Positions 10,333 to 11,027 of a stretch of DNA of 39,681 nt are shown in pieces. This DNA comes from Escherichia coli (GTDB lineage Bacteria > Pseudomonadota > Gammaproteobacteria > Enterobacterales > Enterobacteriaceae): the NCBI RefSeq assembly GCF_003334815.1, contig NZ_QOWO01000035.1; one strand, given 5' to 3'. Numbering within the stretch: position 1 is the first letter of the stretch; every line of letters starts with the position of its first letter. The notes under the pieces were generated by a model. That model had not been told where the DNA came from and did no database searches. It saw nothing but the letters and a program-made list of their open reading frames with translations. Made by a program: the position numbers and the translations under genes.

Positions 10333-10372
10333 AGGAGTAGCAAGTTGAGCCATCTTGCTGCTCCTTTTTGCA
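10333..10372 (+). terminator. Rho-independent terminator of hdeAB
   Basis: 12-bp stem with one mismatch (aggagtagcaag / cttgctgctcct), then tttt gc attttt; ends 8 nt before the yhiD ATG. Confidence 0.7.
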
Positions 10373-10379
10373 TTTTTAT

Positions 10380-11027
10380 ATGACAGCAGAATTTATTATA
10401 CGTCTTATACTCGCGGCAATTGCCTGTGGCGCTATTGGCATGGAAAGGCAAATGCGCGGCAAAGGAGCAGGGTTACGCACACATGTATTAATTGGCATGG
10501 GAAGCGCCCTGTTTATGATTGTTTCGAAATATGGTTTTGCTGACGTGCTGTCTTTAGATCACGTCGGACTCGACCCCAGCCGTATTGCTGCTCAGGTGGT
10601 GACGGGCGTCGGGTTTATCGGTGCAGGTAACATTCTCGTTCGTAACCAAAATATTGTAGGTCTGACGACGGCAGCGGATATCTGGGTGACCGCCGCCATA
10701 GGTATGGTTATTGGCAGCGGTATGTACGAACTGGGTATTTATGGTTCAGTGATGACCTTGTTGGTGCTGGAAGTCTTCCATCAATTAACCTTCCGCCTGA
10801 TGAACAAAAATTACCATTTACAGCTGACATTAGTGAACGGTAATACGGTATCAATGCTCGACTGGTTTAAGCAGCAAAAAATAAAAACTGATTTAGTTTC
10901 GTTGCAGGAAAATGAAGATCATGAAGTGGTCGCCATTGATATCCAGCTTCATGCCACAACGTCGATAGAAGACCTGTTGCGATTATTAAAAGGTATGGCA
11001 GGGGTGAAAGGCGTTTCAATTAGCTAA
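10380..11027 (+). CDS. yhiD: MgtC/SapB-family inner-membrane protein YhiD
   Basis: ORF track start at 10368 is a TTG; the first ATG (10380) gives 215 aa MTAEFIIRLILAAIACGAIGMERQ…, an MgtC-like N-terminus; recognised as YhiD. Confidence 0.88.
   Translation: MTAEFIIRLILAAIACGAIGMERQMRGKGAGLRTHVLIGMGSALFMIVSKYGFADVLSLDHVGLDPSRIAAQVVTGVGFIGAGNILVRNQNIVGLTTAADIWVTAAIGMVIGSGMYELGIYGSVMTLLVLEVFHQLTFRLMNKNYHLQLTLVNGNTVSMLDWFKQQKIKTDLVSLQENEDHEVVAIDIQLHATTSIEDLLRLLKGMAGVKGVSIS

Follow-up and report, generated by a model that had tools for sequence, protein, structure and literature searches.

Background

Leaky terminators within operons are found between rpsU and dnaG in the rpsU-dnaG-rpoD operon, and an attenuator is found between rplL and rpoB. 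Translation initiation that is not led by a Shine-Dalgarno (SD) sequence is found on unstructured A/U-rich leaders, where it is presumably assisted by ribosomal protein S1. Leaderless mRNAs, such as those of lambda cI and Tn1721 tetR, have their transcription start at the AUG. In phage T4 genes 38 and 25, a split ribosome-binding site (RBS) is bridged by a hairpin; the SD lies outside the stem and the folding sets the proper distance.

The hdeB-yhiD junction was compared with these systems. It lies in the hdeAB-yhiD operon, a name that is routinely cited in the literature; the operon annotation is long-standing, and the RNA 3′ end at the junction is already present in public data. The literature search found no paper on the hdeB-yhiD terminator specifically, nor on its abutting SD-less yhiD start. 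The junction is read here, with a probability of roughly 80%, as a leaky intrinsic terminator inside the operon, with approximately 2% of the transcripts passing into yhiD.

Locus and gene setting

The window (the whole stretch of Escherichia coli DNA that was analysed, 39,681 nucleotides) contains the E. coli acid fitness island in reversed orientation relative to MG1655. The MG1655 coordinates were converted as window position = 10380 + (3655902 - MG1655 coordinate). The genes around the junction were found to be the following.

8715-9287, minus strand: hdeD (open reading frame list and RefSeq annotation of MG1655)
9542-9874, plus strand: hdeA (open reading frame list and RefSeq annotation of MG1655)
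9990-10316, plus strand: hdeB coding sequence, 108 amino acids, stop codon TAA at 10314-10316 (MG1655 RefSeq, 3655966-3656292 on the minus strand, mapped onto the window; open reading frame list)
10380-11027, plus strand: yhiD coding sequence, 215 amino acids, MgtC/SapB family, ATG at 10380 (RefSeq annotation, NF007431, homologues and pN/pS)
11069-11599, minus strand: dctR (open reading frame list and MG1655 RefSeq); slp, also on the minus strand, is present as well

The hdeB-yhiD spacer is 63 nt long and identical in the window and MG1655. An 801-nt query around the junction was matched in 5,419 of the 5,426 complete E. coli genomes at an identity of at least 95%, and yhiD was present in at least 5,410 of them. 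Outside Escherichia, the linkage of hdeB and yhiD was found in none of the 80 loci compared.

Three departures from the usual junction were observed. E. coli BHD6 (locus 1581-2646) was found to contain IS903B (IS5-like) exactly between the terminator and the yhiD ATG, at the window equivalent of 10371-10379 and with a 9-bp duplication CATTTTTAT, and yhiD is thereby parted from hdeAB; in FDAARGOS_1077, an IS1 was found inside the 801-nt query region. An 8.6-kb contig labelled Flavobacterium paronense CECT 8460 was found to contain an Escherichia-type hdeA-hdeB-terminator-yhiD segment with single-base indels, in which hdeB was 96% identical and hdeA was split across two frames; the likeliest source of this segment is contamination or a long-read contig of low quality, and not a Flavobacterium locus.

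Elsewhere in the window, Rfam matches at gathering level were found for GadY (1308-1421), ES205 (7200-7271, downstream of gadE, where its 3′-UTR small RNA would be expected), two copies of AgrB (16704-16787 and 16935-17018) and ES036 (25796-25836), all on the minus strand. They are known small RNAs of the acid fitness island and its neighbourhood.

The terminator hairpin downstream of hdeB

The spacer was found to contain a hairpin followed by a U-rich tail that runs up to the yhiD start codon, with the following parts.

10329-10344, plus strand: 5′ arm AAAAAGGAGTAGCAAG (from the fold), including an SD-like AAGGAG at 10332-10337
10345-10353, plus strand: 9-nt loop TTGAGCCAT, variable, with CCGAGCCAT in E69 and TTATGCCAT in SCPM-O-B-8794
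10354-10369, plus strand: 3′ arm CTTGCTGCTCCTTTTT (from the fold), whose last five T form the proximal U-tract
10365-10379, plus strand: U-rich tail and spacer TTTTTGCATTTTTAT, at once the terminator U-tract and the entire SD-less yhiD leader

Taken alone, the hairpin 10329-10369 was found to form 16 bp with a folding energy of -23.0 kcal/mol, of which an 11-bp G/C-containing core reached -17.8 kcal/mol. In its 91-nt context, the energy was -29.4 kcal/mol (z = -4.27), and an equally good fold was obtained in 0 of 200 shuffles. The last position of the G/C core is 10364, 15 nt 5′ of the yhiD ATG; directly 3′ of the stem follows the U-tract UUUUUGCAUUUUU, which starts at 10365 with the tail pattern UUUUU-GCA-UUUUU. 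The 3′ arm is followed by GCATTTTTAT (10370-10379) and then by the ATG at 10380. The tail score nT was 4.2 and the d score by the d'Aubenton-Carafa formula was +14.8. The break in the U-tract after five U is compatible with a leaky terminator.

The hairpin was not listed by the consensus terminator scan, probably because the loop limit of the scan is 8 nt and the loop here contains 9 nt. Two regional matches were listed by the same scan, at 9688-9705 on the plus strand and 11105-11089 on the minus strand, both within coding sequence.

Other identities of the element were considered and set aside. A 101-nt query around the junction was matched in 5,418 of the 5,426 complete E. coli genomes at an identity of at least 97%, with exactly one copy per genome among the matches listed, and a REP/BIME-like repeat was rejected. 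A regulated attenuator or riboswitch was likewise not recognised: no Rfam family was found on the hairpin beyond chance matches of microRNA models (E <= 1 and gathering thresholds), and 9 positions vary among the 12 nt between the hdeB stop codon and the hairpin. With A5 and T5 on its two sides, it could also act on the minus strand, against antisense transcripts from slp-dctR through yhiD. A bidirectional terminator was rejected; the hairpin is less stable on the minus strand (-12.7 kcal/mol, 5 T), since the G.U pair becomes C/A, and no 3′ end on the dctR sense strand was listed in that 100-nt coordinate bin.

Mapped RNA 3′ ends

In the Term-seq data of Adams et al. 2021 (PMC7815308, Supplementary files 1 and 3), 3′ ends of MG1655 were found at 3655910 in LB at OD 2.0 (61,204 reads) and at 3655911 in M63 (193,294 reads), and were annotated there as -8 and -9, respectively, from the yhiD start. 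On the window, they correspond to the following positions.

10371 (= 3655911) and 10372 (= 3655910), plus strand: in vivo RNA 3′ ends (Term-seq, PMC7815308; minus strand in MG1655)

These ends lie 7-8 nt past the last G-C pair (C10364), where intrinsic terminators usually release their transcripts. The original prediction, that an hdeAB terminator adjoins the yhiD ATG and ends 8 nt before it, is thus in agreement with the measured ends and with the hairpin fold. In LB at OD 0.4, no such end was listed (PMC7815308), and hdeAB is not expressed there; in the two conditions that gave the ends, it is expressed. The published table of Rho regions contains no entry for hdeB/yhiD; however, it comes from LB at OD 0.5, where hdeAB is off, and the same holds for the bicyclomycin data. 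Judged by the hairpin, the U-tract, the 3′ end position and the drop in downstream RNA, the terminator would be Rho-independent.

Other Term-seq 3′ ends at 13 nt or less from a start codon were found in front of pepA (-13), alaC (-12), nuoA (-10), rplU (-7), mepS (-6), secB (-5) and asd (-5) (PMC7815308). They resemble the hdeB-yhiD ends in that an RNA 3′ end lies immediately 5′ of an open reading frame, but several of them may be processing sites or 5′-UTR events and not the terminator of the preceding gene.

Two neighbouring spacers were also inspected. The hdeA-hdeB spacer (9910-9965) was found to contain abundant Term-seq 3′ ends at MG1655 3656317 and 3656318 (176,188 and 406,178 reads), equal to window 9965 and 9964, which lie 25 nt before the hdeB ATG and just past a long hairpin without a U-tract (TGAACAGG..GGAATA..TATTCC..CCTGTTCA); they may mark the end of an hdeA-only transcript or a processing site. 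In the 41-nt convergent spacer between yhiD and dctR (11028-11068), no terminator made of a hairpin and U-run was found, and no Term-seq 3′ end was listed within MG1655 3655000-3655599.

Transcript levels of yhiD and read-through

In the data of Seo et al. 2015 (PMC4918353, Supplementary Data 1) at pH 5.5, the FPKM values in the wild type and the gadE deletion were 19,808 and 258 for hdeA, 13,433 and 78.8 for hdeB, and 244 and 1.97 for yhiD. The RNA ratio of yhiD to hdeB was therefore 1.8% in the wild type, an approximately 55-fold drop, and 2.5% in the gadE deletion, and yhiD RNA was found to be 124-fold lower without GadE, as hdeA and hdeB also fall. The spacer between hdeA and hdeD contains the GadE sites that were listed for hdeAB-yhiD and hdeD (PMC4918353). 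Under microaerobiosis, hdeA, hdeB and yhiD RNA were co-induced in published data (log2 5.42, 5.84 and 5.21, respectively), and yhiD has been placed in the same RpoS response class as hdeAB.

The constant small fraction of yhiD RNA and its shared GadE dependence argue that the yhiD mRNA is the read-through of transcripts from the hdeA promoter; a GadE-independent promoter would supply less than 1% of the yhiD RNA at pH 5.5 under aerobic conditions. The drop in RNA is probably due to termination and not to faster decay of the yhiD segment; the true termination efficiency may be lower than 98%, because differences in decay contribute to the steady-state RNA ratio along with termination. Strict proportionality of hdeAB and yhiD is counted against by RT-qPCR of a recent study, in which a 10-minute shock at pH 2 raised hdeA and hdeB 2-fold in the wild type and left yhiD flat.

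The original prediction had offered two routes to yhiD expression, read-through of the terminator or an unusual, possibly leaderless, start. Read-through fits the RNA level of about 2% of hdeB and its tracking of GadE. For a leaderless start, the yhiD mRNA would begin at the A of the ATG at 10380 from a promoter overlapping the terminator, an arrangement for which the lack of an SD and the shortness of the spacer are the sole pointers. The consensus scan found no promoter-like hexamer pair in 10330-10380, and the -10 positions for a start at 10380 read TTGCAT/TGCATT, with no A at position 2 and without the A2/T6 pattern. In addition, yhiD RNA quantitatively follows hdeAB and GadE, and the published list gives 3′ ends here and not starts. 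The leaderless route is therefore considered extremely unlikely and that part of the original prediction was not supported.

A possible second promoter inside hdeB

A further source of yhiD mRNA was considered, in which an FNR-dependent promoter within hdeB supplies a meaningful share of it, at least anaerobically, and yhiD is partly its own transcription unit. An FNR ChIP-seq peak at 3,654,199 (U00096.2) was assigned to yhiD as 'directly activated' by Myers et al. 2013 (PMC3688515), where sigma-70 occupancy was also found to rise without oxygen, and where hdeAB-yhiD was classed as FNR-repressed and yhiD as FNR-activated. These opposite classes suggest a second input. In the window, a pattern search found an FNR-like motif as follows, one of 5 matches against 1.9 expected.

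10117-10130, plus strand: FNR-like motif TTGATCTGAATCCA, inside hdeB

The peak was placed on the window with an offset of +1977, taken from the older-version hdeA coordinates, and would presumably lie at about 10106, in hdeB. The motif sits 11-24 nt from the summit so converted. The offset is consistent with the position of a GadE site listed in PMC4918353. A start site is hinted at by the filter of Adams et al. (PMC7815308), under which a 3′ end with a stop codon nearest upstream was kept only if a dRNA-seq start lay 21-200 nt upstream; this would imply a called start site within window 10172-10351, although a start site called within a very abundant mRNA frequently stems from processing.

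The consensus scan, however, found no sigma-70-like promoter in hdeB, and 99% of the yhiD RNA was GadE-dependent under aerobic conditions at pH 5.5 (PMC4918353). The internal promoter is thus regarded as a tentative possibility that would, if real, explain the partial uncoupling of yhiD from hdeAB. It would add to the leaky terminator and not replace it, because its transcript still crosses the hairpin and uses the same SD-less start. A yhiD promoter within hdeB with a normal leader was the finding that the original prediction had set against itself; the promoter is hinted at by the FNR peak and the implied start site, and the normal leader is not, as the hairpin is still crossed. In the 2-kb region, sigma-70-like matches were fewer than the chance expectation, and the best of them, TTGGCA-16-TATGAT (10/12), was found at 10492-10519 on the plus strand, 112 nt into the yhiD open reading frame.

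The start codon of yhiD and the missing Shine-Dalgarno sequence

YhiD was found to match the NCBIfam equivalog NF007431 over its full length (residues 1-215 on profile positions 1-215 of 215) with 401.7 bits against a cut-off of 214. An alignment with approximately 50 homologues found in other Enterobacterales showed the Met to be conserved together with the motif M-x-x-[DE]-[FL]-[LI]-[LI]-R. As judged from this alignment and profile, ATG 10380 is the true yhiD start. An alternative in-frame codon was present in the mechanical open reading frame list.

10368-10370, plus strand: in-frame TTG from the mechanical open reading frame list, within the U-tract and directly 5′ of 10371/10372

This TTG was rejected as the yhiD start and is an artefact of open reading frame calling, for 10380 is where the aligned homologues and the equivalog profile, matched over its full length, both begin; its position within the terminator T-run is as originally described.

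The absence of an obvious SD, also noted originally, was borne out: within -22 to -1 of the ATG, the best duplex with the anti-SD had an energy of 0 kcal/mol, compared with -6.0 kcal/mol for hdeA and -3.1 kcal/mol for hdeB. Nearly all of the approximately 50 homologues carry a recognisable SD (-4 to -12 kcal/mol), and all Escherichia copies are without one. The sole SD-like element in the spacer is the AAGGAG at 10332-10337 (-8.2 kcal/mol), which belongs to the 5′ arm of the hairpin and precedes the ATG by 43-48 nt. A split RBS of the T4 gene 38 type was rejected, as this AAGGAG is inside the stem and would still be 19 nt from the AUG with only the upper stem formed. The yhiD start region was predicted to be as unpaired as that of hdeB (mean probability of being unpaired 0.52). 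Initiation of yhiD would accordingly take place independently of an SD on an unstructured A/U-rich site, presumably with the help of ribosomal protein S1.

The AAGGAG could have a use of its own, as the RBS of a short upstream open reading frame (uORF) with the following features.

10345-10383, plus strand: speculative 12-codon uORF, UUG..UGA, with AAGGAG 7 nt upstream and its UGA (10381-10383) overlapping the yhiD AUG (AUGA)

A ribosome would load here before the 3′ arm is made, block the hairpin (antitermination), stop at the AUGA and reinitiate at yhiD. The terminator would then double as a translational gate, in which only the ribosome-capturing transcripts are read through and translate yhiD, and the strict conservation of the stem sequence would reflect the SD as well as the pairing. 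The perfect SD at 7 nt from the UUG, the frame that ends exactly on the AUGA overlap and a stem kept at the sequence level without compensatory changes agree with this; the SD, however, is sequestered by pairing in a stem of -23 kcal/mol, no part of the element varies more than the loop, and the UUG start is lost in two divergent lineages, being replaced by CCG in E69 and by UUA in SCPM-O-B-8794. The AUGA overlap itself arises because codon 2 of yhiD is ACN (Thr). Translational gating by the uORF is considered very unlikely, and the uORF is probably fortuitous. In SCPM-O-B-8794, the loop TTATGCCAT was observed to contain an AUG in frame with yhiD, 9 nt past the AAGGAG, which, if used, would extend YhiD by 11 residues (MPSCCSFLHFY-).

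Conservation of the terminator and of yhiD

The stem was compared in ten distinct Escherichia sequences, including E. whittamii and representatives of the cryptic clades. Only 1 of the 32 stem columns was found to be variable, against 15 of the 31 other spacer columns (Fisher p = 3e-5). Pairing was kept in 160 of 160 cells and 15 of the 16 pairs were invariant, with no double compensatory changes; the stem varies too little for covariation to argue for or against it. The sole change, A10339G in O157:H7 PA20, turns an A-U pair into G.U, and the 5′ arm was invariant in the other 9 of the 10 sequences. Variable nucleotides were found in the loop at positions 10345-10348. In the spacer columns 10370-10379, 8 of 10 were invariant; G10370 (T in SCU-112, giving a longer U-run) and A10372 (a mapped 3′ end) vary.

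In the same lineages, the synonymous divergence of yhiD from K-12 was 0.12-0.61 and its pN/pS was 0.03-0.14, a strong purifying selection which argues that YhiD is translated. From these substitution patterns, both the terminator and yhiD appear to be under purifying selection.

These values also bear on whether yhiD is practically silent in Escherichia, a gene in decay that is carried along behind a strong terminator and whose lack of an SD is functionally meaningless. Silence would fit an RNA level of only about 2%, the natural IS903B and IS1 insertions at the junction, the absence of a phenotype under Mg2+ starvation in published work, and the failure to detect the YhiD protein in the proteome of the microaerobiosis study (one proteome) despite a 37-fold RNA induction. 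Decay is hard to reconcile with an intact open reading frame under such selection at a pS of up to 0.61, with the presence of yhiD in nearly all of the complete genomes, and with 244 FPKM, which is not negligible. A silent yhiD is accordingly held to be highly improbable.

Discussion

In the leaky-terminator reading, the hairpin 10329-10369 and its U-rich tail would end the very abundant hdeAB message and give it a protected 3′ end. Most of the transcripts from the hdeA promoter would stop at 10371/10372, and about 2% at steady state would continue and carry yhiD, so that the output of the periplasmic chaperones may be set approximately 50-fold over that of the membrane protein YhiD with both under GadE/RpoS control. 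On the read-through RNA, the hairpin would refold and end 11-16 nt before the AUG, leaving the U-rich UUUUUGCAUUUUUAU as the leader, and YhiD would be translated from ATG 10380 at a low rate and without an SD.

Such an arrangement would explain how one promoter gives very high HdeA/HdeB and yet an approximately 50-fold lower yhiD RNA, and why some expression studies show yhiD uncoupled from hdeAB. It is an unsurprising arrangement and leaves the established view of the acid fitness island as it stands. At this junction, a terminator tail without an SD forms the complete leader of a gene; as a clean natural case of this kind, it may serve to test SD-independent initiation beside a stable hairpin.

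Comparison with known systems

As in rpsU-dnaG and rplL-rpoB, a stable hairpin and a U-tract are found between co-directional operon genes that share a promoter, with a high output before the hairpin and a small read-through fraction after it. Unlike in those operons, the tail of the hdeB terminator is the whole yhiD leader and 8-9 nt separate the 3′ end from the AUG; in addition, no regulated antitermination is known or indicated at hdeB-yhiD. Among the starts that are not led by an SD, yhiD shares the absence of anti-SD pairing, the U-rich single strand before the AUG, the A/U-rich start of the open reading frame and the low expression, but it differs in the very stable hairpin at the usual position of the SD helix (-11 to -50), and its assignment to this class would follow from these features. 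Leaderless lambda cI and Tn1721 tetR are likewise without an SD, whereas yhiD has no indicated promoter or 5′ end at its AUG and its RNA follows the upstream promoter. T4 genes 38 and 25 have in common with yhiD that a hairpin separates an SD-like sequence from the AUG, but the AAGGAG of yhiD is found inside the stem.
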